A stretch of 64,000 bases of DNA from a virus (Duplodnaviria; Caudoviricetes), in the IMG/VR virus record IMGVR_UViG_3300036797_000015, positions 1 through 64,000 of that record; one strand, given 5' to 3'. The notes beneath the pieces were generated by a model. That model ran no database searches. It was given only the letters and a program-made list of their open reading frames with translations, and had not been told where the DNA came from. Both the position numbers and the translations under genes were made by a program. The first letter of the stretch is position 1; each line of letters begins with the position of its first letter. Positions 452 to 60,084 of this stretch are shown one piece after another.

Positions 452-820
452 ATGCGTAATCCCTGGTAGAACGACCGTAGACCGGAATGTCGGGTTAGAT
501 GCTTAGGCGAGACCCACTAGACCGGCCAATGCGTGACGTTAAGATCGGCAAAGTCGAGAGGAACCACCCGGCTATGATCGGGAGTAGGCCGCGACCTAGC
601 GGAAAGCCCTGGGCGGGCAACAGATCTGGCGCTAACGGAGTTGCTTGAGAACTAAACAGAGAAATCCTTAGTAGCGGAGGTGCGAACCTCCGTGGTTCCT
701 ACACATCCGCTACATGGTTGTTGTTGGGGCAACGTAAGTTGCGTGCGAGTCTGGGGCTTCGGTCCCAGGCTGGTGCGGGGCGAAGCGTTATTTGCCCTGT
801 TCCCAACACCCTGAGGAGAA
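441..820 (+). ncRNA. Long structured 5' leader / putative ncRNA
   Basis: No credible + strand ORF. Nested helices GGAACCAC(559-566)/GTGGTTCC(692-699), CGGAGGT-GCGA-ACCTCCG, GCAAC-GTAA-GTTGC, GTCTGGGGC-TTCG-GTCCCAGGC; GNRA and UUCG tetraloops. Confidence 0.6.
640..659 (+). promoter_or_regulatory. rrn boxA-like antitermination element
   Basis: GTTGCTTGAGAACTAAACAG closely resembles the actinobacterial rRNA-leader boxA region (GTTGTTTGAGAACTCAA) as recalled. Confidence 0.5.
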
Positions 821-823
821 ACA

Positions 824-1132
824 GTGATCGAGAATCTGGAGAATAGCCTAGCACGATTAAACTTCCCCAAATTGCCTGATAGGGAAGATCGTGTTATCCG
901 GCTAGCCTCTGTACTCTGCGACGTTACGAACGGCCGTGTTGGCCGTAAGTATGACGCAGATGTCCGCAAATCCGCGGTGCTTATCTGGCGTAGTTTAACC
1001 AGTGATGAAAGCGTGTTCGTTAGGCTGCGGCCGCGAACGCTTACTAAGCACGCGAATCTGCTGCTCAGCCAAACGGTTAATCCCGATGCGGCGTATCTCG
1101 CTGGCCTTATAAAAACAGCAATCTCGGAGTAG
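824..1132 (+). CDS. Hypothetical early protein
   Basis: GTG start with GAGGAG SD; TAG stop abuts repeat element. Confidence 0.75.
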   Translation: MIENLENSLARLNFPKLPDREDRVIRLASVLCDVTNGRVGRKYDADVRKSAVLIWRSLTSDESVFVRLRPRTLTKHANLLLSQTVNPDAAYLAGLIKTAISE

Positions 1133-1210
1133 AAGTGCGGCGGTAGCCGGTCTAGTACCGGCTACCTGCGGACTAGCTACCCTGCTTGTCTACCCAACAA
1201 CCAAGAGGAA
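1130..1210 (+). repeat. Class I intergenic element, copy 1
   Basis: TAGAAGTGCGGCG-[GTAGCCGG/CCGGCTAC stem]-CTGCGGACTA-small hairpin-CCCAACAACCAAGAGG. Confidence 0.9.
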
Positions 1211-1218
1211 ACACGAAA

Positions 1219-1470
1219 ATGGCTACACTGGAAGTAAAGCTGAGCGTGGTTAACTGCGGCGAACGCCGGGCCGATAGGCTCTGCGTTGGCGACCTTGTCT
1301 GTCTTGAAGGCACGGTCGCTACCGTCGCGGATGCTACGTTCTGCGGAGCCAACCCTGGCATGATGTATGTGGACTTTTTGGCCACCGCCGAGGATGGCCA
1401 GGAGTGCCGCAAAACGCACTTCGTGCGTCGGGATGAGGCATTCCGAGTCGTGAAGGTGGTCGCAGAATGA
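1219..1470 (+). CDS. Hypothetical early protein
   Basis: ATG after the repeat-borne SD; ATGA overlap with next gene. Confidence 0.75.
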   Translation: MATLEVKLSVVNCGERRADRLCVGDLVCLEGTVATVADATFCGANPGMMYVDFLATAEDGQECRKTHFVRRDEAFRVVKVVAE

Positions 1471-1724
1471 CCATCTACTACCAAGCACGATTCCTGGCTG
1501 AAGGCGGCCCAGCGTTCGATGGGTGTCCAAAGGCCAATCTGCCTGAAGGCACCGAAGTGGATGAAAGCGAAGCGGTGATTATCCGCTACCAGAAAGGTAT
1601 GTGGCAAGTTATCTACGTCAACGCGAACGTCGTGGTGGCAGAGGGCCAGGATATGTACCTGGCAACGAGCTATATGCTTGACTGGGCGCACGCGCTCCAG
1701 GATGAACTGGAGGCAAGCAGATAG
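1467..1724 (+). CDS. Hypothetical early protein
   Basis: Coupled start; TAG stop begins repeat copy 2. Confidence 0.75.
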   Translation: MTIYYQARFLAEGGPAFDGCPKANLPEGTEVDESEAVIIRYQKGMWQVIYVNANVVVAEGQDMYLATSYMLDWAHALQDELEASR

Positions 1725-1812
1725 AAGTGCGGCGGGTACTGGGACTTAGGTCCCAGTGCTCTGCGGACTAACTATCTGGTTAGTACCAAGCAGTACCCAA
1801 CAACCAAGAGGG
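1722..1812 (+). repeat. Class I intergenic element, copy 2
   Basis: TAGAAGTGCGGCG-[GGTACTGGGAC/GTCCCAGTGCT]-CTGCGGACTA-CTAAC/GTTAG hairpin-CCCAACAACCAAGAGG. Confidence 0.9.
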
Positions 1813-1818
1813 AAAGAA

Positions 1819-2496
1819 ATGACTATGACAACAGCACAAAAGCCCGCCAGCGGACGTTCGCTGAAATTCTTCCATGACCTGATCTGGGGCAAGGATGAGC
1901 AAAGCGTGTCTGACTTCCGTGCGAATCTGCCGACAGAGTGGCGGTCGTTGTTTGATCGCTGTATCAGCAGTTTCGCTAACTGCGACCATGAAGGTCTTGG
2001 CCCAGAAGCCATGAACGATTGGATGGCGAGTGAAGAATGGCCGCTGCTGGAGCAATCCGACGCGAGTAAGTTCATTGAGGGCTTGAAGGCTTTGCCCTGG
2101 AAGCAAGGAACTAACCCCGCCAAGGTGCGCGAACCTGTCACCGAAGATGGCATGTACAAGGTTGGCGACACGATCTACAAAGTCCAATGGAACCGGCAGA
2201 AGACTAACCTCTATGCCAAGGTCCTGCGGGTGTCGCGTAACTCGTATGAGGGGAAGCACGAGGTTTGGTTCGATTACGAGTCTGGTGCGATGAAGAAAAT
2301 CTCCGCTAGCGATAAGATGACCTACGAGCAGGCACGAGAGTTTGGTGCTATGTACGGTACGTGCGTTAACTGTGGCAGGTTACTCACCAACGAGCTTTCG
2401 ATAGCTCTTGGTATCGGCCCAGTCTGCGGTGACCGGATGTTCGGTGGCGACTTCAAGTTCATGATCGATGACGCCAAATTGAAGTTAGCCAAATGA
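1819..2496 (+). CDS. DUF6011-like zinc-finger protein
   Basis: C-terminal YGTCVNCGRLLTNELSIALGIGPVCG matches the CxxCGRxLT...SxxxGIGPxC pattern. Confidence 0.75.
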   Translation: MTMTTAQKPASGRSLKFFHDLIWGKDEQSVSDFRANLPTEWRSLFDRCISSFANCDHEGLGPEAMNDWMASEEWPLLEQSDASKFIEGLKALPWKQGTNPAKVREPVTEDGMYKVGDTIYKVQWNRQKTNLYAKVLRVSRNSYEGKHEVWFDYESGAMKKISASDKMTYEQAREFGAMYGTCVNCGRLLTNELSIALGIGPVCGDRMFGGDFKFMIDDAKLKLAK

Positions 2497-2654
2497 AGGT
2501 GAAGGTGACCGCTAGAAAGTATGGCGGAGATGATGCTGCTTCGTGGGCGATATTCCGTAGCGACGCAAGCAGGCCGGTAGTTACCGGCTTGTACCGGAGT
2601 GAGGTAGCCTACTACAAGAAGCAGATTCAAGAGATGGTCGACCAGGAAGGATAG
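2493..2654 (+). CDS. Small hypothetical protein (53 aa, not in ORF track)
   Basis: ATGA-coupled: MKVKVTARKYGGDDAASWAIFRSD...QEG; TAG begins repeat copy 3. Confidence 0.7.
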   Translation: MKVKVTARKYGGDDAASWAIFRSDASRPVVTGLYRSEVAYYKKQIQEMVDQEG

Positions 2655-2740
2655 AGGTGCGGCGATACCTGGTGCTACGGTACCAGGTATCTGCGGACTA
2701 GCTATCCGGCTAGGACAAAGAAAACCCAACAACCAAGAGG
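2652..2740 (+). repeat. Class I intergenic element, copy 3
   Basis: TAGAGGTGCGGCG-[ATACCTGGTGC/GTACCAGGTAT]-CTGCGGACTA-CTAGC/GCTAG hairpin-CCCAACAACCAAGAGG. Confidence 0.9.
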
Positions 2741-2747
2741 AATGAAA

Positions 2748-3935
2748 GTGACAAAACCCCAAGATAGTATCATGAGCAAAATCATGAAGCTGCTGGAGAG
2801 GGCCAATCACCCGAGTACGCCTGAGGCTGAAGCAAAAGCATGTGAAGAAAAAGCAGACGCTTTGATGGCGCAGCACCAGATAGATCGAATGGATCTGAAG
2901 CCAGAAGAGAAGGCCAAGATTATCCAGGACGCCTGGAGCATTCACTTTGGTGTTTCGGGTAAGGCCCACGAATTTGGTAGCGCCATCGAGTCGCTCATGC
3001 GTGCTGTCCTGTCGCATTGTAAGATCAAGATGGACCCTAGGTACAGCTACGGCACTAACGAGAATGGGGACAAGGACTATGGTGTCCGAGTCTTCAAACT
3101 CGTTGGCTTCCCTGAAGATATTGCCTATGCTGAGCGCATCTGGTTCCGAGTCTTCAAAGAGTTTGTGTTTAACGTCAACCCAGGTTGGCGCAAGGACGCC
3201 TCTATAGAGGACAACGCGTATGACTTGGTCAAAGCCAGTATCGACTGGCAGACGATGGTCCTGATGGCGAATAATGCCGGAGATGACCGCATACCCGTGT
3301 CGGAGTTGGAAGTGTTACAGCCGTATGATAAACGGCAGATACCAGTTAAGGGTAATCGTCCGCTGATCAAGGGCATCAATATGTTGCGTGATGCTTACCG
3401 TGCGGAATGCGAACGTCGCGGTGAAGCCTATGAGTACAATAAAGGCGACAAGACCCGTGCGTCGTACAGAAGCAGTTTCGCTATCTCGTTTGCCGGCACG
3501 ATTAAGCGGCGACTGGATGAAATGCGCCAGAAAGCAGAAGAGACTGTCTCTGATCGGGACAAGTACGCGTTGGCACTAGTCGATACAGAAGAGCAGGTGG
3601 AGCGTGAGTTCTACCGGCTGTTCCCCGAGTTTGACCCTGAAATCCGCAAGCGCCAAAGGGATGCTGCGGCCGCTGAGGCTGTGGCTGACTTCCTGGCAAT
3701 GTCGGAAGATGAGCAAGCTTACGTGATCGACTATGTGTCCAAGGAGGAAGCAGAGAATGAGAAACGTTGGCAACGGGCAGCCGGTCGGGCTAGGCGCAAT
3801 TACGGGACGATACGTGGTCGAGACTATGGCGACGTTCAGGACCGGGCCTGGAAGGCTGGCCACCAAGCTGCGTCCTCAGTTAATCTGAGGGATGATGCGG
3901 AGGTTAAGCGTGAGACCCGTAAGGGTATCCGATGA
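2748..3935 (+). CDS. DUF2786-domain protein
   Basis: N-terminal KIMKLLERANHPSTPEAEAKACEEKADALMAQHQID; GTG 2748 is better spaced from the SD than ATG 2742. Confidence 0.75.
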   Translation: MTKPQDSIMSKIMKLLERANHPSTPEAEAKACEEKADALMAQHQIDRMDLKPEEKAKIIQDAWSIHFGVSGKAHEFGSAIESLMRAVLSHCKIKMDPRYSYGTNENGDKDYGVRVFKLVGFPEDIAYAERIWFRVFKEFVFNVNPGWRKDASIEDNAYDLVKASIDWQTMVLMANNAGDDRIPVSELEVLQPYDKRQIPVKGNRPLIKGINMLRDAYRAECERRGEAYEYNKGDKTRASYRSSFAISFAGTIKRRLDEMRQKAEETVSDRDKYALALVDTEEQVEREFYRLFPEFDPEIRKRQRDAAAAEAVADFLAMSEDEQAYVIDYVSKEEAENEKRWQRAAGRARRNYGTIRGRDYGDVQDRAWKAGHQAASSVNLRDDAEVKRETRKGIR

Positions 3936-4042
3936 CCGCATATTCCGTCCCCAGGTTCTGGATGGTCGCGTGGGTCCACGCGATGCTCGAATGTGTGAGA
4001 TTGCTGATGCTTCTGGCAATCGCGCTGGAGATAATGTACTAA
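3932..4042 (+). CDS. Small hydrophobic peptide (36 aa)
   Basis: ATGA overlap; MTAYSVPRFWMVAWVHAMLECVRLLMLLAIALEIMY. Confidence 0.5.
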   Translation: MTAYSVPRFWMVAWVHAMLECVRLLMLLAIALEIMY

Positions 4043-4136
4043 GGAGGTGATCATGCGAAGTGCCCGCCAGATATGCAGCCCTGGCGGGTATTTCGGGTGC
4101 CGTACCTCGACACTCGACCCAACAACCAAGAAGGAA
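4041..4136 (+). repeat. Class II intergenic element, copy 1
   Basis: AAGGAGGTGA-ATGCGAAGTGC-[CCGCCAG/CTGGCGG]-GTATTT, TCGGGTG/CACTCGA hairpin, CCCAACAACCAAGAAGG. Confidence 0.85.
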
Positions 4137-4148
4137 ACTAGAAGAACC

Positions 4149-4682
4149 ATGAGCAAGCAAGAAGATGTGCGTAAGTTCACCAATCTGGACAATGACACCT
4201 CAATCGAAACCTGGAGTATAGGCGAGATTGCTGAAGGTGTTATGGCCAGAGTCAAAGAAACGACTGGTGAAGATGTCAATAGAGCGTATGGACAAAGTCT
4301 GTGGGGCCTGGAACGCAAACTCGCTGAGTTTGTCAAGAACCTTGACCTGGAGACACCCAAACCCTCTATGGTGTTCCGTGGCGCTAGCTACTGGTCGCCT
4401 GACACGATCGACGCTTGGGTTCAGCTGCTGAATGAAGACAAAGCCGCCAAATTGGCCAAGAACTGGTCCAAGGAGGAATTGGTCCAAAAGGCAGCATCGT
4501 TTATGGCTAGGGAGTCTGCCTACAGCGATACCAAGATTGCCAATCGTGACGCCTACAATCGTGCCGAAGCCGTTATGGAGTTTATCCAGACCCTGGATGA
4601 ATTTGGCATTGTTGACGAGACGATGGAAGATGCGATGCGGACTATCGTGAACAGGTTCAAGAGTAAGTCGGGCCTGCGATGA
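4149..4682 (+). CDS. Hypothetical early protein (alternative in-frame start at 4053)
   Basis: ATG after repeat SD; an upstream strong SD+ATG reads through the repeat in frame. Confidence 0.8.
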   Translation: MSKQEDVRKFTNLDNDTSIETWSIGEIAEGVMARVKETTGEDVNRAYGQSLWGLERKLAEFVKNLDLETPKPSMVFRGASYWSPDTIDAWVQLLNEDKAAKLAKNWSKEELVQKAASFMARESAYSDTKIANRDAYNRAEAVMEFIQTLDEFGIVDETMEDAMRTIVNRFKSKSGLR

Positions 4683-4780
4683 AGCCTAACGGAGCATTCC
4701 GCGGTGCGTTCTTTGGGGCTTTGGTTGGTATCTTTATATTCTGGGTACCTGCCATAGTCCTGATGCTTACCCACCACTAG
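4679..4780 (+). CDS. Small membrane peptide (33 aa)
   Basis: ATGA overlap; MKPNGAFRGAFFGALVGIFIFWVPAIVLMLTHH, single TM segment. Confidence 0.6.
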   Translation: MKPNGAFRGAFFGALVGIFIFWVPAIVLMLTHH

Positions 4781-4866
4781 GGGTGAATATGCTAGGTGCC
4801 CTGGGGCTTAACGTCCCAGGGTATCTAGGGTATCAAACCCGATACCTACCCAACAACCAAGAGGAA
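4778..4866 (+). repeat. Class II intergenic element, copy 2
   Basis: AGGGGTG-ATGCTAGGTGC-[CCTGGGGC/GTCCCAGG]-GTATCT, GGTATC/GATACC hairpin, CCCAACAACCAAGAGG. Confidence 0.9.
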
Positions 4867-4872
4867 AAGAAA

Positions 4873-5172
4873 ATGTCTGGAATCTACGCAAAGATCAAGA
4901 GGCACAAGGGCAATAAGGTCTGGTACAGTCTTGAGTTCAAGATCATAGCTATCGGCGAGGAATCGCGGTGGCCGTGCTTGGATATGGCCAGATTCAACCT
5001 GCCGACTGAAGCCCGTGCTTGCGCTGAAGAGCGCGGCTGGCACGTGGTGGAGACCTGGCGGGAAGCCTATGATCACGCCCAGATTGGTCCGTGGGATGGT
5101 GTGTACCGTGCCTATGAGCCACCAAGGGTGGTCGGTCCTGACTATGTAGAGGAACGGGCCAATGTCCGCTGA
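4873..5172 (+). CDS. Hypothetical early protein (alternative in-frame start at 4789)
   Basis: ATG after repeat SD. Confidence 0.75.
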   Translation: MSGIYAKIKRHKGNKVWYSLEFKIIAIGEESRWPCLDMARFNLPTEARACAEERGWHVVETWREAYDHAQIGPWDGVYRAYEPPRVVGPDYVEERANVR

Positions 5173-5509
5173 GATCGTGACCGCAGGCTTCTGCCCGCAG
5201 TACTTCAGCCAGTTCCGCGTTTTGAGCAATCAAAATGATACATATTACTCAGTAACGCTAAATGGCACTGGGCCAGCATTCTGTACGTGTAAAGCGTATG
5301 AGTTTGCTAAAATGTATGACAAGACCTGTAAGCATATTAAACGGGTCTGGGAACATGGCTGCTTATATAACCCGCAATGGAAGGATGCGGGGCCAAATGA
5401 TCTGGATAAAGTTGGCGTTGAGATTGTCGCTACCGATACCAGAAACAGCTACCCTAAGAATTGCCCCGGTTGTCATGAGGAGATGATAGCCGTGAAGATA
5501 GCAGTATAG
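5162..5509 (+). CDS. SWIM-type zinc-finger protein
   Basis: CTCKAY...TCKHI (CxC..CxH) plus a C-terminal CPGC. Confidence 0.75.
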   Translation: MSAEIVTAGFCPQYFSQFRVLSNQNDTYYSVTLNGTGPAFCTCKAYEFAKMYDKTCKHIKRVWEHGCLYNPQWKDAGPNDLDKVGVEIVATDTRNSYPKNCPGCHEEMIAVKIAV

Positions 5510-5595
5510 GAGACTATGCCAGGTGCCCTGAAGCCAACCACTTCAGGGTATCTGGGGTATCGTTCCTAGATGCCTACCCAACAACCAAGAAGGAA
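5507..5595 (+). repeat. Class II intergenic element, copy 3
   Basis: AGGAG-ATGCCAGGTGC-[CCTGAAG/CTTCAGG]-GTATCT, GGTATC/GATGCC hairpin, CCCAACAACCAAGAAGG. Confidence 0.9.
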
Positions 5596-5597
5596 TC

Positions 5598-6086
5598 ATG
5601 AGAACAAAAGCAAGGAAAGCATTTCTACACTCAGCGTTCACGACCGCGCTTGAAGGCGGAATTGGCTACTGGTCGGAGTGCGAGGAATATGTTTGGTCTA
5701 AGCCAAAAGCCGGGCCAACCAAAGAGCGCACTGAAGACCTGGATGGCTTTCATGCTTGGATAACAAACAACGAGAGTGACTGGGGTGTCGGTAAGGCGTA
5801 CCAACCAAATACAACGAGCAAGTACGCTGTAGATGGTTGGGTTGAGTTAGAGCCTGACGCCACTTTGGTCATTGACATTGACGTTGTCGAGCGTGGAGTC
5901 AATATGCTGGTTGATGCGGTAGTCGCCGCGACCAAGTCGGAAGACCCAGAAGCGCCATTTAACAACAAGTACCTCCGACAGTTCGTGGAGGCTTGGCTAA
6001 CTGATGGCGACGGTGGGGATTACGACGCTAATGGTGCCGACCTGGCTATCCAGCTGGGGCTGTTCGGTGAGGTCGTGTACGCATGA
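5598..6086 (+). CDS. Hypothetical early protein
   Basis: SD plus ATG; TTALEGGIGYWS segment; coupled to next gene. Confidence 0.8.
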   Translation: MRTKARKAFLHSAFTTALEGGIGYWSECEEYVWSKPKAGPTKERTEDLDGFHAWITNNESDWGVGKAYQPNTTSKYAVDGWVELEPDATLVIDIDVVERGVNMLVDAVVAATKSEDPEAPFNNKYLRQFVEAWLTDGDGGDYDANGADLAIQLGLFGEVVYA

Positions 6087-6334
6087 GAATGTTTATTTTA
6101 GGCCTCATCGGTATAGCCTCGTTCAGCGGTGGAGTGCTTGGTTTCAGCTCAAATGACGAGATGAACCAGCGCGTAGTAATTCCGCCAATGACACCGACCG
6201 TTACGGTTACGGCACCGGTGGTGACAGATACAATGCCGGAGCACGAGGATAACCCGCCAAGCCGGTGGGGGACTAGTCCTACGCCGACTCTGCCTTGTCC
6301 CGTGACACTAAACTGCGGGAAGGAGATGGTGTGA
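6083..6334 (+). CDS. Secreted/membrane protein with Pro/Thr-rich tail
   Basis: N-terminal hydrophobic stretch, PT-rich body. Confidence 0.65.
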   Translation: MRMFILGLIGIASFSGGVLGFSSNDEMNQRVVIPPMTPTVTVTAPVVTDTMPEHEDNPPSRWGTSPTPTLPCPVTLNCGKEMV

Positions 6335-6549
6335 CTAACCCCAACCTGGTGTATGTTGAGTTCCCAGGAGGTAACCGAGCGCCTGGCGGTTACATCGTGC
6401 CTGCTTACTTAACTGGCAGAACCAGCGGTCGTCAGAGCCAAGTAGTGCTGACGGCATCGACAAATGGCCATCGCTATGCATGGCCGCAATGGGTACGGAA
6501 TGGGCAGATACTTACCGACGAGGAAGTTTCTGAATTAGGCCCGGACTAG
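6331..6549 (+). CDS. Hypothetical protein
   Basis: GTGA overlap, AAGGAG SD. Confidence 0.65.
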   Translation: MTNPNLVYVEFPGGNRAPGGYIVPAYLTGRTSGRQSQVVLTASTNGHRYAWPQWVRNGQILTDEEVSELGPD

Positions 6550-6574
6550 CCTAGAACGGAGTAAGATAGAGCGC

Positions 6575-6657
6575 ATGCGAGGTGCCTATAACGTACCCAA
6601 ATACGTTATAGGTATCTCGGGTGATGAATCTGTCACCCGACCAACAACCAAAGAGGA
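6575..6657 (+). repeat. Class II intergenic element, copy 4
   Basis: ATGCGAGGTGC-[CTATAACGTA/TACGTTATAG]-GTATCT, TCGGGTGAT/GTCACCCGA hairpin, CCAACAACCAAAGAGG. Confidence 0.9.
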
Positions 6658-6663
6658 AAACAG

Positions 6664-7290
6664 ATGGCAAAGAATGTGAAAAACCCAAGCGGTTACCATT
6701 CAGCTGGCAAAACGCTGCAAGAGAAGGCTGCCAATTTCGGCAGTTTCGTGAAACAGCACGGTTGGACTGGCAGTTTCAAAACTGCTGAAAACGGTGATGT
6801 GAATCTGCTTGCGCAGCGGGGTGACAGTGAGTCCATTGAGATCTGTTGGCTTAAGGGTGGTGGTGGTTCAGTCAGATACACGCTGGCGGGTACCACCGTA
6901 AAGTGCCATAACGTAAGTGCGGCCGCTAAAATTGCCCAAGAGCCACCAGATATCAATAAGGTCCAGAAAGCAGTGCGTAAACGGCATGTTGCTCCTGAGA
7001 ATGGTGAGATCACGCCCGATATACTCGATGGGCTTCAAGGGTCACTTCCGTTCGATCGTGAGTCCACTGACCAAGAGATCAAACTGGCGTTGAAGGATAG
7101 AAACATCGCCTGGATCAATCGGCTCAGCGGTACGGTATACCAAGCTGTAGTGGGGGTGTCCAAGCAGTTTAAGGTCATCCGCGCTGAGGACCCAGTAAGG
7201 GACCAAATCAGTTTCGTGGAGGTAACTCCGCGAGGTATCCTGCCGCAGTTCCGTGCGGTCTATCTCAACAGTATAGTGAGTGTGGGCTGA
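6664..7290 (+). CDS. Hypothetical protein
   Basis: 208-aa ORF after repeat SD, TGATG-coupled to the helicase. Confidence 0.8.
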   Translation: MAKNVKNPSGYHSAGKTLQEKAANFGSFVKQHGWTGSFKTAENGDVNLLAQRGDSESIEICWLKGGGGSVRYTLAGTTVKCHNVSAAAKIAQEPPDINKVQKAVRKRHVAPENGEITPDILDGLQGSLPFDRESTDQEIKLALKDRNIAWINRLSGTVYQAVVGVSKQFKVIRAEDPVRDQISFVEVTPRGILPQFRAVYLNSIVSVG

Positions 7291-9224
7291 TGGCAAAGCG
7301 GTTGTGGTCGATGGGCCTTGGCACGGGTAAGTCTGGTACAGACGTTATCTGGGTGAAACAAAGCAATTATGACCCAGATGCGAATGCCTCTCTGAAAGCG
7401 AATCTGCCTGGCCCTGCTAGGTGGAACGGTGATGAGAAGCGTTTTGAGTTCCCAGTTCACTGGGACGCCTGTACTGGCGCTCGTCGGGTAGCTGACAAGT
7501 TCGATGTACTGCTGCGTATCGCGCCTAGCCTACGAGAGTGGGCTGAGGTTGAGAAAGCAAGGCAGGCAACCATTCCCGATGTTCAGTCGATGGAATTGGT
7601 TGACTTGCCAGCAGTGCGAGAAGGCTACCCTGCGCTTTGGGAGGCTATCACGTCCAGACCGTTCCAGACCGTGGGCGCTGCTTTTGCGGCGCGTAATCGT
7701 TCGTGTCTGATAGCGGACCAACCTGGACTTGGTAAGACTCTCCAGAGTATCGCGGCTGTGATTGAGTCTGGTAGAACCGGACCCATATTGGTAGTGGCCC
7801 CAAAATCCGCTGCCAAACTCACCTGGCCTCAGGAGTTAGCACGTTGGGTACCTGGCGATTTGGTTTATGTGCTTGGTAGCCATCTTAAAGCGGCCGAACG
7901 AGTGCAACTTGCCAAAGACTTCCGTACCGGATCTGGCAATGGGCACGGCCGTAAAGATGGCAAGCGTATTTGGCTTATCACTTCGCCGCACTATGTACGG
8001 ATACGAGCCGAGGTCGATGACTGGGGCAAGTATATGTACGAGAATGGCAAGAAGATCATCAATCCCGTTGGCGAGGCAGTAATGGAACTGTTCGACGTTA
8101 AATGGTCTGCGGTGATCGTTGATGAGTCGCACCAAACGCTAGCTGGTGCTAGGGGCAACAAAAAGAAACAGTCTTCTCAGCGTCTTGGGCTTGGAGCCTT
8201 AGACGTTATCGACGGAGGATTGCGGATTGCGTTGTCTGGAACACCGTTCAGAGGTAAGGAAGAATACCTCTGGGGCCAGCTCAACTGGTTACGCCCTGAT
8301 TTGTATCGTAGCTTCTGGCAGTGGATCAAAGATCACTTTGACTGCTACCAAGACAGGTACGGTATGACAATCGGCAGAATGGTGGACGCTGAGGGTATGT
8401 ATCGTGAAGCCAGCTCTGTGATGATTCGGCGCACGAAGGATGAGGTTGCTAAAGACTTGCCCGCCAAGCAGTACGGTGGGTGGCCTTTGGAAGCCGGCAA
8501 TCCCGAGTCGCCGATAGCTGTGTGGCTTGATATGGAACCGAAACAGGGTAAAGCCTACCGGGACATGGTCAAACACGCAGCCGCAGAGCTGGAGGGTGGT
8601 ACGCTACTGACGAACGGCATCCTGGCGGAGTTAACGCGCCTGAAGCAGTTTGCTGGTAGCTACGGCAAGCTTGAAGGTGATAAGTACGTTCCGATTCTGC
8701 CGTCCAATAAGTTTGACTGGACGGTAGAGTTTCTAGACGAGCGTGGCATCACCGACAAGTACGAGCCTGACGCGCCTAAAGTGGTGATAGCGTCTCAGTT
8801 CGCTCAGCTGATCAATTGCTTCGCTGGTGCCTTAAAGGATATGGGAATTGAAGCCCACGTCTTTACGGGAGCCACGAGCGACAAGGACAGAGAGCGGATA
8901 AAGGACGACTGGCAGAATAACCCTGAGAGTCATGTGAGGGTGCTTCTGCTTACTACAACCGCTGGCGGCGTGTCGCTGACTCTGGATGCTGCGGATGATC
9001 TAATCATTCTCGATGAGACGTGGAATACGTCTGATCAAGAGCAACTGGAGGATAGGCTCCACCGCCTGTCGCGTATGCACCAGGTGACAATCTGGAAAGT
9101 GTTTAGCCGCGATACAATTGAGGAATCAATCGCGGTTGCCAACCTAGGGAAGGAGTATAACATCAAGTCGATCATTGATGGCGAGCGAGGCATTCCGTTC
9201 GCTAAACAGATGGTTGGCGGATGA
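7290..9224 (+). CDS. SNF2-family (SF2) DNA helicase
   Basis: ADQPGLGKT (motif I), VIVDESHQ (DExH), LSGTP, C-terminal GGVSLTL and QLEDRLHR. Confidence 0.92.
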   Translation: MAKRLWSMGLGTGKSGTDVIWVKQSNYDPDANASLKANLPGPARWNGDEKRFEFPVHWDACTGARRVADKFDVLLRIAPSLREWAEVEKARQATIPDVQSMELVDLPAVREGYPALWEAITSRPFQTVGAAFAARNRSCLIADQPGLGKTLQSIAAVIESGRTGPILVVAPKSAAKLTWPQELARWVPGDLVYVLGSHLKAAERVQLAKDFRTGSGNGHGRKDGKRIWLITSPHYVRIRAEVDDWGKYMYENGKKIINPVGEAVMELFDVKWSAVIVDESHQTLAGARGNKKKQSSQRLGLGALDVIDGGLRIALSGTPFRGKEEYLWGQLNWLRPDLYRSFWQWIKDHFDCYQDRYGMTIGRMVDAEGMYREASSVMIRRTKDEVAKDLPAKQYGGWPLEAGNPESPIAVWLDMEPKQGKAYRDMVKHAAAELEGGTLLTNGILAELTRLKQFAGSYGKLEGDKYVPILPSNKFDWTVEFLDERGITDKYEPDAPKVVIASQFAQLINCFAGALKDMGIEAHVFTGATSDKDRERIKDDWQNNPESHVRVLLLTTTAGGVSLTLDAADDLIILDETWNTSDQEQLEDRLHRLSRMHQVTIWKVFSRDTIEESIAVANLGKEYNIKSIIDGERGIPFAKQMVGG

Positions 9225-9532
9225 CCACTCTCGTGGTGACTGGCGCTGGCCTGGCCTGCTTTATAGTAGGTTGGGTCAGCGCCACAGTCACATACCGCGT
9301 CAGACCGTCGCTCAGAACATTGCTTAGCCCGGCTATACAGTCAGAAGCCATAGCAGACTTCATGACGCCAATTGTAAACCTGGAGGAATACGAGGCAAAC
9401 CGAAAATCAATGCACCGACAGTTAGTACAGTCAGGCAGACGTACTGCGCGACTAGATGGCGGCCCAACTGCTAAGGTGTCGAAAATGCGGAAGCGTAAAC
9501 GGTATTCGCGGTCGCTTAGAGATCAGGCATAA
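9221..9532 (+). CDS. Membrane-anchored hypothetical protein
   Basis: N-terminal TM segment, basic C-terminus, ATGA overlap. Confidence 0.6.
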   Translation: MTTLVVTGAGLACFIVGWVSATVTYRVRPSLRTLLSPAIQSEAIADFMTPIVNLEEYEANRKSMHRQLVQSGRRTARLDGGPTAKVSKMRKRKRYSRSLRDQA

Positions 9533-9637
9533 ATCGTGAAAAAGTCAGGACAAATTCACCAAAACCGTAGCGTATCCCCTGGGAACCGGGTAGGGTCGGA
9601 TAGGTAAGGCCAGAATCGTAGGACGATAGGAGTCAAA

Positions 9638-10291
9638 GTGGCCGAAGTGAACCGGAGGTTTGGACCGGACAATCCATCAGAGGCGCAGAAGTCTCTGGCG
9701 AAATATATCCGCGAGCAGAAGGGTTTTGACATCACGGATGCCGCGGTGTCGGCGTCCTTTACCTGGCACGGGGAGTGGCAATCTTCCCCCGAGCGGCACG
9801 CCGAGCTGGAGTTGGTTCGCCAGCAGGCCCGTGAGGATCGGGAGAAGGCACGCGAGGCAAGCAAGGCTGAAGCCGATGAGAAGCGTAAGGCCAAGGAAGC
9901 CGAGCGCGAATCAAAGCGTGCTGAGCGCGAGCAACAGGCCGAGGCAAAGCAGGCCGAGCGCGCCCAGAAGGAACAGGAACGCGAAGCAAAGCGCGTCCAG
10001 CGCGAGCAGGAGCGTGAGCAGAAGGAAGCAGAACGGGCGCAGCGCGCTACCGAGCGTGAAGAGAAGCGCAAGCAACAGGAAGAGGAACGCGCCCAGAAGC
10101 AGCAAGAACGTGAAGCTGCTCGTGCGGCCAAGGAAGCAGAGCGCGAAGCCAAGAAGGCAAGCTCTGGCGCTGACGGTGACGACAGCACTTCCGCTACTCC
10201 TGCTGCGGCCGAGAATGGCCGCGAGTCTCGTCGGCGTATTCGTCGGCGTGACGACGCTGATACGGTTGCTGTCAGCGAATCAAGTTTCTAG
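9638..10291 (+). CDS. Protein with long E/R/K/Q/A charged helix
   Basis: AGGAG SD; ~110 aa of EREAKR/ERAQ-type repeats. Confidence 0.8.
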   Translation: MAEVNRRFGPDNPSEAQKSLAKYIREQKGFDITDAAVSASFTWHGEWQSSPERHAELELVRQQAREDREKAREASKAEADEKRKAKEAERESKRAEREQQAEAKQAERAQKEQEREAKRVQREQEREQKEAERAQRATEREEKRKQQEEERAQKQQEREAARAAKEAEREAKKASSGADGDDSTSATPAAAENGRESRRRIRRRDDADTVAVSESSF

Positions 10292-10296
10292 ACCAA

Positions 10297-10470
10297 TGGT
10301 TGTTGGCCAGACCCCTGAACGCTCACGAGGCGTCCAGGGTGCTCTGGTGAGTAGCGCGGACGGTAGACCCATGGGAAGTGGGATCGTGTGCACCCGTTCG
10401 ACTCGGGCATTCCGCGCTACTCTCCAGGGTAACCCTCTTGGCCGAGGTTACCCCAGACAGAAAGACTGGG
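10297..10470 (+). ncRNA. Structured RNA with tRNA-like core (10349-10426)
   Basis: 12-bp stem GAGTAGCGCGGA/TCCGCGCTACTC followed by T-CCA; T-arm-like CCCG-TTCGACT-CGGG; flanking hairpins CCAGA..CCCTG/CAGGG..TCTGG and GGGTAAC/GTTACCC. Confidence 0.6.
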
Positions 10471-11059: not shown

Positions 11060-11367
11060 TGAGTATTGCCCTTGAACGAGTGATCCGCTGCGATATGTGC
11101 CACACGAATGTGGGGAAGCCGGTAGCAGACGGACCTACCTCTGAGGAACTTGCCAAGTCGCTTGAGGACGATTTACTCATGCTTCTGCGCAAACCCGACG
11201 GTACCGAGTTCAAGGTCTGCGGTAGGTGCTTCCTGAACCATCCTGACTGGCAGCTAAGCAAGTCGCAGCTAGCGGAGGACGAAATTGTAGACGAGTTACC
11301 GCCAGGCAAATATTGGCCTGAAGGTGACCTTGGCGACGATCCAGATGGTGATCTGGATGCGGATTAA
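11059..11367 (+). CDS. Zinc-finger hypothetical protein
   Basis: TAATG coupling; CDMC...CGRC. Confidence 0.75.
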   Translation: MSIALERVIRCDMCHTNVGKPVADGPTSEELAKSLEDDLLMLLRKPDGTEFKVCGRCFLNHPDWQLSKSQLAEDEIVDELPPGKYWPEGDLGDDPDGDLDAD

Positions 11368-11521
11368 TAGGCCAACCTGGAATCCTCTCCAGGTTGTTGG
11401 GAAGTGGCGGCGTGCTAGGCGTTACAGTCTAGCACGTCGTCACGCAAATGATGCGGCCCATATAGAGTGGGCAAGTGCCTTGGCCGGCAATACACGAAAG
11501 GACCGAAGTGGCAAGAGCTAA
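11357..11521 (+). CDS. Small basic hypothetical protein
   Basis: Fills the gap between coupled genes. Confidence 0.5.
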   Translation: MRINRPTWNPLQVVGKWRRARRYSLARRHANDAAHIEWASALAGNTRKDRSGKS

Positions 11522-27753: not shown

Positions 27754-27965
27754 AGAACTTTGACCAGATCAGAACCCGTGAAGCAATTAACATTGCTGTA
27801 ACCGTAGACATTCCGGGGACAACCTTCACCAGGAGTATATCTGTTGCTCCTGACGTTGGTGAACTTGTATCTGATGTATTGAAGATAGCCCTGACAGAGT
27901 TGTGCGGGCAAGCAGTCGGTATCGTGCGAGCGGTAAGTGATGAGGTGAGAAATGCCAATGACTGA
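27750..27965 (+). CDS. Hypothetical protein
   Basis: GTGA overlap. Confidence 0.6.
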   Translation: MKNFDQIRTREAINIAVTVDIPGTTFTRSISVAPDVGELVSDVLKIALTELCGQAVGIVRAVSDEVRNAND

Positions 27966-35859: not shown

Positions 35860-35899
35860 GATATACTCAAGTTGTGCGCATCGGCCAAGGTACCGCACT

Positions 35900-35952
35900 C
35901 AGCTGCCCGACCTGGTTAGTGTTTCCCCGGTCCACGCCGGGTCGGGCGGCTG
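35900..35952 (+). promoter_or_regulatory. 16-bp intergenic RNA hairpin
   Basis: CAGCTGCCCGACCTGG/CCGGGTCGGGCGGCTG with two G-U pairs; no U tract. Confidence 0.65.
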
Positions 35953-35987
35953 ACCCAATAACTTAACATTGCCTGCGACACTGGTAA

Positions 35988-36203
35988 GTGGCGCGCTCCC
36001 AACGAGTTAGGATGAAGCAAATGGCAAAGTGGCAGACTACGCCACGGAAGGCTCTACAGCCCATTCCGCGTGTGGTAGATAACACGGATCTGATTGGTAT
36101 TCGCCAGTGGATCCTTCAGGCCAGCAGAGTGCCGATCCGCAGTCAGGATATGCCTGGTGGACCTGGTACATTCTCGCCTTATGGCAACACGAACTTCCGC
36201 TAG
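35988..36203 (+). CDS. Small basic protein
   Basis: MARSQRVRMKQMAKW...; start uncertain. Confidence 0.55.
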   Translation: MARSQRVRMKQMAKWQTTPRKALQPIPRVVDNTDLIGIRQWILQASRVPIRSQDMPGGPGTFSPYGNTNFR

Positions 36204-59200: not shown

Positions 59201-60084
59201 TGCAACCATACCAGTATCAAATAGGTAGCGTGCTATTTGGGCGTAATACGGACATACCTGTCAGCAAGGTAGAGGTCCAGCCGTATAACGTCAATCAACA
59301 AGACTTCCAGGTTATCCGAACTGATGAAACCAGATTCGGGATAGATACGCTAGCCCCTGCACCTATTGTCTTCACTATGGCTGTTATGGATAACTTCGCC
59401 CTGGAACAGATATCGCATATCGCCGGACCTGATCTGGATGACCTGTTCCTACCGCGAGGTAGCCTGCTATCGTCGCTAGCACGTACATGGAAAGCTAGTG
59501 ACGTGCGAGCATTCTGGGGGCAAGTGATGCCTCTACTTTGCTGTAAGTGGGATGGTACGGTAGTACGCATTTACGGTAGGCCTGGTAAGTTTCAATATGC
59601 TAAACGAGCAAATGATCGCACGACATGGATTGAAGTACAAGCAGAGTTCAGGCGTGGCGATACCCTAGCCCATTCTGACATTGAATATTATGTTGGGGAT
59701 ATAACAAATCCGTTGTTGGGCATGGCTCCAGGAGCGCCAGCTGTGGTAGCGCAACGTGGTGACGGTGATGGCGACTCATGGCTCAGATTCGTGTTCACTG
59801 GTCCGATGACACATCCCATCGTCAACTATGGTGATAAGACTTTAGAGATGACTACTTCAATCCCGGCTGGGGTATCTGTTGAAGTGTCGACATATCCTTG
59901 GGTTCGTCGGGTAGTTGACTCAAATTCAGTTAATCGTCGCACTGAAGTAATAGGCAATACTTTGTATCTTGATCAGATTAACTTCCCAGCAGATGATGCT
60001 ATTGAAGTAAGCTGGGATTGTGATGACGCTGACACTTCAACAGGATTGTATTTTATGTGGAGGGAGGCATACAATGTCATTTAA
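59200..60084 (+). CDS. Minor tail protein (distal tail-like)
   Basis: Directly after tape measure, TAATG coupling. Confidence 0.75.
   Translation: MQPYQYQIGSVLFGRNTDIPVSKVEVQPYNVNQQDFQVIRTDETRFGIDTLAPAPIVFTMAVMDNFALEQISHIAGPDLDDLFLPRGSLLSSLARTWKASDVRAFWGQVMPLLCCKWDGTVVRIYGRPGKFQYAKRANDRTTWIEVQAEFRRGDTLAHSDIEYYVGDITNPLLGMAPGAPAVVAQRGDGDGDSWLRFVFTGPMTHPIVNYGDKTLEMTTSIPAGVSVEVSTYPWVRRVVDSNSVNRRTEVIGNTLYLDQINFPADDAIEVSWDCDDADTSTGLYFMWREAYNVI

Follow-up and report, generated by a model that had tools for sequence, protein, structure and literature searches.

A conserved start box upstream of early-gene Shine-Dalgarno sequences in an actinophage-like virus and the RNA context of its same-strand complements

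Here, we describe a short motif, the start box, found directly 5′ of the Shine-Dalgarno (SD) sequence of early genes in a 64-kb stretch of DNA (the window) out of a 73.8-kb IMG/VR virus record of soil metagenome origin (IMGVR_UViG_3300036797_000015), together with the complements of this box on the same strand. A sequence-only reading of the window had proposed that RNAs containing two such complements, at 715-729 and 10297-10306, mask the boxes of all early genes in trans as an early-to-middle switch. We consider it fairly likely that the boxes are open, that the copy at 715-729 (copy 1) is the cis strand of a leader helix, P1, and not a trans regulator, and that the match at 10297 (copy 2) is lineage specific and probably fortuitous. 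A third complement at 11379-11402 (copy 3), which covers the SD as well as the box, keeps a changed form of the trans proposal under consideration.

The motif CCAACAACCA was found in seven exact copies on the plus strand, at 1194, 1797, 2726, 4119, 4850, 5578, and 6641, in agreement with what had been noticed for seven early genes from the sequence alone. Each runs into an AGAGGA-type SD, with the start codon 10 to 20 nt further on. With up to one mismatch to the box, a count that the sequence-only reading had suggested as a check, there were 18 matches against 4.3 expected. All sense copies adjoin an SD, point in one orientation, and lie within 802-6650, the early region. That reading had missed a degenerate eighth box at 802-811, in front of the first gene, which is the one that copy 1 faces. 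The coordinates of these and the other features are collected in Table 1.

To compare genomes, relatives were found in IMG/VR, JGI metagenomes, and one GTDB metagenome-assembled genome (MAG), with the SNF2-type helicase (7290-9224) as the anchor. They include a complete 71-kb genome, G001 (= L071), and a close relative, L087 (CAZPLH010000003.1), whose 31-kb contig was placed by binning in a Candidatus Saccharibacteria MAG; the placement may be either a mis-binning or a host hint, and we do not take it as host evidence. The same box is in use in G001, L015, L060, L062, L067/G006, and L087, and its exact sequence, beyond composition, is kept across genomes with 60 to 70% protein identity. It is absent from L017 and L018, which belong to more distant lineages. 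At 420-470 and 4060-4100, L018 is without the box and hairpins and has clear TTTACT-17-TAGACT/TAGAAT promoters before its early genes; another repeated SD-proximal motif, GAGAGGAACCCA, is present in this genome. A scan of IMG/VR with the 17-mer of box and SD gave 12 single-copy matches, which look like chance.

Before each box, there is a long hairpin (hp1) followed by a short one (hp2), and these modules fall into two classes. Compensatory changes were found in 13 of the 16 pairs of hp1 (19 copies from six genomes), G.U pairs are present, and the modules occur on the plus strand only, which together indicate RNA structures. The box and SD between the hairpins and the gene are predicted to be easily opened, at 1.5 to 4.1 kcal/mol for the seven internal units versus 7.5 ± 3.3 kcal/mol for 24 control ribosome-binding site (RBS) regions, and this bears out the earlier suggestion of an unstructured site. 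CCCAACAACCA would be a sequence-invariant, G-free stretch, predicted to be single stranded, between hp1/hp2 and the early-gene SD, and most likely would serve translation initiation as an open platform for landing or recognition. The class II modules (4053-4148, 4790-4872, 5517-5570, and 6581-6680) open with an SD-ATG of their own, and the short frames starting there extend across both hairpins and the box; two share the frame of the main gene, one ends ahead of the box, and one overlaps the main start. The arrangement suggests upstream open reading frames (ORFs), whose translation could unfold the hairpins.

The first complement, TGGTTGTTGTTGGGG, is noncoding and offers two 9-nt pairing registers, as had been claimed. 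It is conserved in all six genomes with a visible leader (the window, G001, L060, L062, L067, and L087), where the antisense stretch lies 75 to 90 nt upstream of the box of the first gene and is followed by a tetraloop hairpin, whose loop is GAAA or GUAA in four of these genomes, and then by hp1 and hp2. P1, formed by the antisense stretch and the first box, appeared in each single-sequence minimum free energy fold (the window, G001, and L087), and RNAalifold with five genomes gave a four-way junction, P1 to P4. When the pairs of P1 to P4 were counted, 95.5% of the cells were paired and 16 pairs had changes on both sides; none of 500 shuffles reached a leader pairing as good, and slid controls gave 32 to 49%. 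Changes within P1 include a double one, GC>UA, in L062 and three single ones that are wobble-preserving. In L087, GGGG/CCCC is replaced by GGAA/UUCC, and the terminal A matches the U of the first unit only. In G001, the antisense stretch has an extra GTT and the first box a matching extra CCCAA, for 15 bp in total. The compensatory changes in P1 come from two lineages. First boxes are off consensus in four of the six genomes, and internal boxes are mostly exact, as would fit a constraint of its own on the first box. The first unit is occluded, with predicted opening costs for box and SD of 6.0 kcal/mol in the window and 8.7 kcal/mol in G001.

Taken this way, 715-729 would be the 5′ strand of P1, closing a four-way-junction leader through cis pairing with 802-810, so that masking would be confined to the platform of the first gene, and the early RNA would have a compactly folded 5′ end. 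The leader structure is shown by covariation; from the sequences, we infer that it may affect translation or stability. We also considered the leader as a cis element of the thermosensor or riboswitch type that masks the RBS. A conserved helix does pair the initiation region with an upstream strand in the six genomes, but P1 ends 3 to 4 nt 5′ of the SD, leaving the SD and the start codon unsequestered, and the leader had no Rfam match.

The second complement, TGGTTGTTGG, is the exact 10-mer that had been claimed, and it is noncoding, 6 nt past the stop of a conserved coiled-coil gene (9638-10291). The motif was found at this position in none of eight relatives; in its place, L015 and L016 have GGTTGGTTGCC, which forms a local hairpin. 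An exact 10-mer was present on the plus strand in 8.4% of 1,000 dinucleotide shuffles (P = 0.084), which is not beyond chance, as the sequence-only reading had cautioned, and the match is probably fortuitous. Its predicted duplex of −16.8 kcal/mol covers the box only and is 12th in the genome-wide scan, where several coding windows reach a similar energy; the cost of opening this site is 5.6 kcal/mol. For copy 1, the duplex with an early RBS is predicted at −17.8 kcal/mol, also over the box only, and the opening cost at 10.9 kcal/mol.

These results bear directly on masking of all early boxes in trans from 715 and 10297. Complementarity of 9 to 10 nt at two noncoding sites beside conserved structures, with the duplex energies given above, speaks for it. 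Copy 1 is, however, buried in a cis helix in every genome, copy 2 is absent from the eight relatives, and several coding windows score equally well. As to the co-conservation that had been suggested as a test, copy 1 is kept in six of six genomes, with a partner in cis, and copy 2 in none of eight. Burial of copy 1 in a cis structure and lack of conservation of copy 2 largely match what the sequence-only reading had named as refuting its proposal. We regard this switch as very improbable.

The placement of both sites at the edge of a structured RNA, also part of the sequence-only reading, holds up, since both the leader and the twin-hairpin element directly 3′ of copy 2 show covariation. The latter element is kept, with covariation, even where the flanking protein is only 31% identical, and it had no Rfam match. 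Its CCAGG/CCUGG segments (within 10307-10440) could form alternative pairings. The two RNAs had further been said to share a similar helix, GTAGCGGA/TCCGCTAC in one and GTAGCGCGGA/TCCGCGCTAC in the other. Both helices exist in the window, but the second has other sequences in every relative (ATACCGCTAG, GTACCGGAGG, GTAGCCGG, and others) and the first is not kept in relatives either, so the likeness is a local coincidence.

A duplex scan of every 24-nt plus-strand window against the consensus early RBS led to copy 3, the best complement in the genome, at −26.9 kcal/mol against a mean of −5.5 kcal/mol (standard deviation, 2.7) and −20.6 kcal/mol for the next best. Pairing takes in the box over 10 bp and the SD over 4 to 6 bp; the 9/10 antisense copy of the box, at 11391-11400, had not been seen in the sequence-only reading. 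A CCUGG/CCAGG hairpin of 5 bp holds the anti-SD CCUCU of this copy in its loop, with GUUGUUGGG following, and opening the site is predicted to cost 8.4 to 13.8 kcal/mol, with the anti-SD in the loop and the tail partly free. In G001, L015, L016, and L087, the scan placed the homologous site first or second, and duplexes within a genome are 3 to 4 kcal/mol better than those across genomes. A 13-nt core, CCAGGTTGTTGGG, is invariant in four genomes (the window and three relatives) in an alignment that is 71% identical around it; in L087, the core has GGA-T where the boxes of that genome have A-TCC, a covarying version. In the lineage of G006 and L060, the box is in use but copy 3 is absent, and a pattern search for further relatives of copy 3 returned L015 and L016 only.

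Copy 3 falls within codons 8 to 15 of a small Arg-rich ORF of 43 to 54 amino acids, called orfX here. Coupled starts, third-position variation downstream, and a match of the L016 homologue to phrog_38098 (E = 9e-8) support it as coding. Within the invariant core, there is no synonymous change, and the frame in the window differs (QVVG versus RLLG) and is restored by flanking indels, which argues for a constraint at the nucleotide level. The ORF segment RRARRYS.ARR coincides with a covarying hairpin, and this coincidence suggests a dual coding and RNA constraint. We rejected copy 3 as the RBS of a minus-strand gene, as no conserved minus-strand start or ORF was found.

In G001, a further 22-nt anti-RBS at 27827 (−32.6 kcal/mol) occupies the apical loop of a hairpin of about 35 bp before the late genes, and this hairpin follows a TATACT box. 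The counterpart hairpin of the window (35860-36020) is without complementarity to the early RBS. A promoter-like box, TATACTCAA(G/A)TTGTG, is conserved after the same gene in both genomes (about 27770-27915 in G001 and 35860-36020 in the window). Both copy 3 and the G001 copy reach into the anti-SD. An origin of the two as inverted duplications of a whole unit was rejected, because only the RBS part is mirrored and the next hairpin has plus orientation.

The idea of a phage anti-RBS thus survives in changed form, centered on 11379-11402, as a possible though rather unlikely alternative that is read from sequence comparison. In this form, the anti-RBS on the orfX mRNA or on a processed fragment of it, with lineage-specific copies such as that at G001 27827, would pair with box and SD of all early mRNAs and shut them off once transcription reaches the 11379-11402 region. 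We hold this only tentatively. The strength of the predicted duplex relative to the rest of the genome, the recurrence of the site near the top of the scan in relatives, the invariant core despite the frame change, the covarying L087 version, the advantage of own-genome duplexes, and the position of the G001 copy in an apical loop before late genes all favor it, and an inverted copy in a conserved, covarying hairpin loop of the cluster K phage Anaya may be a parallel by analogy (see below). Set against this are the absence of the site from a lineage that uses the same box, the ratio of one antisense copy to seven targets, opening costs of 8 to 14 kcal/mol, and the loss of the 27827 copy at 35860-36020 of the window. 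In addition, the site is inside a real small gene, so part of its conservation may be coding.

Recognition of the box by a protein, with the antisense copies incidental, is another explanation, and we judge it unlikely. The protein could act on RNA (a RegA-like repressor, a RegB-like nuclease, or ribosomal protein S1) or on DNA (a stoperator-like operator, in either orientation). The retention of the exact box at 60 to 70% protein identity is what such recognition would predict, covariation of the inverted copy in L087 is also expected from a shared DNA motif, and the position beside the RBS resembles that of start-associated sequences (SAS), for which a protein or RNA partner has been proposed (PMC3203893). 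No candidate protein was identified, however, and the wobble-type changes and bulges of P1 break a DNA motif while keeping RNA pairing. GNRA-type loops and G.U pairs mark plus-strand RNA, and the extension of copy 3 and of the G001 copy into the anti-SD is not required by a box-binding protein. The G.U pairs, the GNRA loops, and a position that is fixed relative to the RBS agree poorly with the DNA operator in particular.

Returning to open boxes with copy 1 in cis, several points weigh against this interpretation. Cotranscription of 715-729 with the first gene is an assumption. P1 rests on six sequences with few independent changes, and in the window, it has one C.U break. As P1 stops short of the SD, any effect on initiation would be indirect, and the P1 strand may still be freed and act elsewhere. 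The second antisense class (11379-11402 and G001 27827) is not explained by the leader fold. Finally, 10297 falls in the roughly 5% of the DNA that is noncoding, and the chance figure for copy 2 drops if this filter is accepted.

The closest known analogue of the start box is the SAS of cluster K mycobacteriophages and its extended form (ESAS). SAS is a 13-bp box at the RBS of 11 to 19 nonstructural genes, in one orientation; an inverted repeat precedes about half of the copies, and in K1 phages a single copy is turned the other way (PMC3203893). The current reading of ESAS is that of SigA promoters accompanied by an operator-like repeat (Freeman et al. 2024, PMC11373665), and the ESAS arms do not support RNA pairing. 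Both systems have short, asymmetric sequences at the RBS of many early or nonstructural genes with conservation beyond the SD, one orientation, larger-than-usual intergenic gaps, and rare inverted copies (here, those at 715, 10297, and 11391), and the host group is actinophage-like in both. The consensus differs, being GGGATAGGAGCCC in cluster K and CCCAACAACCA plus SD here, with no nucleotide match to known phages, and the box here lies 5′ of the SD, whereas SAS lies around it. Moreover, the repeats here covary as RNA (13 of 16 pairs of hp1, with G.U) without promoter enrichment, whereas ESAS is a DNA element, and an inverted copy here pairs with the box of the first gene. As the repeats here are covarying RNA hairpins, the parallel is functional and not one of membership in the SAS family.

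The lone inverted SAS of the K1 phage Anaya lies at 59850-59900 (29850-29900 of L078), in the 385 nt of noncoding DNA that separate gp96 from gp97. It occupies the apical loop of a hairpin that other cluster K phages keep, with covariation. It is the best right-arm complement to SAS, only narrowly. It is mainly because of this recurrence in a cluster K hairpin loop that the idea of an anti-box is kept alive. Some related cluster K records annotate a coding sequence across the Anaya-type hairpin, and indels break its frame.

Other phage systems offer partial parallels. The c4 RNA of phages P1 and P7 is a processed 77-nt antisense RNA that acts on the icd-ant RBS, with one target operon. Like the elements described here, it is a phage RNA element in the same transcription unit as its target, with loop sequences complementary to the RBS region, but c4 is a defined RNA, whereas here the RNA is a candidate, its targets would number seven, and the best antisense copy is part of a coding region. 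Extended complementarity to the RBS, as in c4, was found for copy 3 over box and SD, and for copies 1 and 2 over the box only. In T4, RegA and RegB are proteins that control early mRNAs at the RBS, a similar marking of an early-gene set at the translation-initiation region for collective shut-off, with proteins as the effectors; no homologue of them was found here, and none was looked for. The RNase III sites of the T7 early region and the T4 PeSL cassettes are hairpins between consecutive early genes; they share with the modules here the one orientation and the repetition as regulatory cassettes, and they differ in lacking the conserved GCGGCGG...CTGCGG flanks and an invariant box. Cluster A stoperators are DNA sites for the immunity repressor that are spread through operons. 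They are likewise short, asymmetric repeats oriented with transcription, but they are neither fixed beside an SD nor paired with RNA hairpins, as the sense boxes here are. The c4 antisense RNA is mentioned in PMC8198154, and stoperators are contrasted with SAS in PMC3203893.

Table 1. Start boxes, hairpin modules, and antisense copies in the window
Feature	Position	Strand	Remarks
Antisense copy 1	715-729	+	720-728 is the 5′ strand of leader helix P1
P2, P3, and P4	729-797	+	P2, GNRA-type hairpin (729-742); P3, hp1 (743-776); P4, hp2 (777-797)
P1 3′ strand	802-810	+	Within first box
Degenerate eighth box CCCAACACCC	802-811	+	Before first gene; SD 814-819, GTG start 824
hp1+hp2 module, class I	1130-1192; also 1722-1795, 2652-2724	+	Flanks GCGGCGG...CTGCGG
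Start box CCCAACAACCA + SD	1193-1210	+	Gene 1219-1470
Start box + SD	1796-1813	+	Gene 1819-2496 (DUF6011)
Start box + SD	2725-2742	+	Gene about 2742-3935 (DUF2786)
hp1+hp2 module, class II	4053-4117, 4789-4848, 5516-5576, 6575-6640	+
Start box + SD	4118-4135	+	Gene 4149-4682
Start box + SD	4849-4866	+	Gene 4873-5172
Start box + SD	5577-5594	+	Gene 5598-6086
Start box (ACCAACAACCA) + SD	6640-6658	+	Gene 6664-7290
Antisense copy 2, exact 10-mer	10297-10306	+	Directly 5′ of twin-hairpin element
Twin-hairpin RNA element	10307-10440	+	Contains GTAGCGCGGA/TCCGCGCTAC helix; 9 covarying pairs, 7 genomes
Small Arg-rich ORF (orfX, 54 aa)	11357-11521	+	With copy 3 and covarying hairpin
Antisense copy 3, anti-RBS over box + SD	11379-11402	+	Best duplex in genome

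The ends of the virus record overlap by 126 nt, which indicates a circular assembly. All genes are on the plus strand except one, which is NrdH-like by eye, occupies 1-209, and runs on at the end of the record; the 614 nt between it and the first plus-strand gene (824) are without a convincing ORF. Among the products of the genome are a DnaE-type polymerase, 62% identical to its counterparts in cluster D mycobacteriophages, along with a primase, an exonuclease, a terminase, a portal, a major head protein, and a 1,777-amino-acid tape measure, a content that points to an actinophage-like siphovirus. A megablast search with 12 kb against known phages gave no match, a tRNA/tmRNA scan found none, and nothing relevant was found in Rfam at the gathering threshold or at E ≤ 10. 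A scan for sigma-70 promoters and terminators showed no enrichment, and no consistent −10 element was seen upstream of 715 across the six leaders. The 500-nt noncoding stretch at 210-715 separates the leader from the divergent NrdH-like gene and abounds in CCWGG and TAGACC repeats (fold z = −3.8); it has blocks in common with G001 (GGCCGGTAYWCT...ACCAGGGSTTTT), and separate blocks are common to L060, L062, and L067. It may contain promoters, an origin, or a further structured RNA.

For phages of this kind, the finding raises a broader proposal, which we put forward as doubtful: that actinophages with a start-box regulon also encode same-strand anti-boxes that would pair with box and SD and so time the shut-off of the regulon. 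Equally doubtful candidates for such anti-boxes are the core at the 5′ end of orfX, the hairpin loop of the G001 late leader, and the inverted-SAS hairpin loop at the right end of cluster K genomes. If only the cis pairing holds, the leader is a neat but ordinary structured one. Covariation gives good support to the RNA structure around the box here, the closing helix of every lineage has an inverted box facing the first gene's own box, and anti-box sequences recur in structured contexts, including the cluster K loop. SAS elements have been unexplained in mycobacteriophages since 2011, and this phage group offers a second, unrelated example. RNA pairing at the start box is a hypothesis that can be tested in culturable Mycobacterium smegmatis phages; the broader proposal, if true, would amount to a general SAS/anti-SAS RNA switch and would explain the purpose of the SAS elements.

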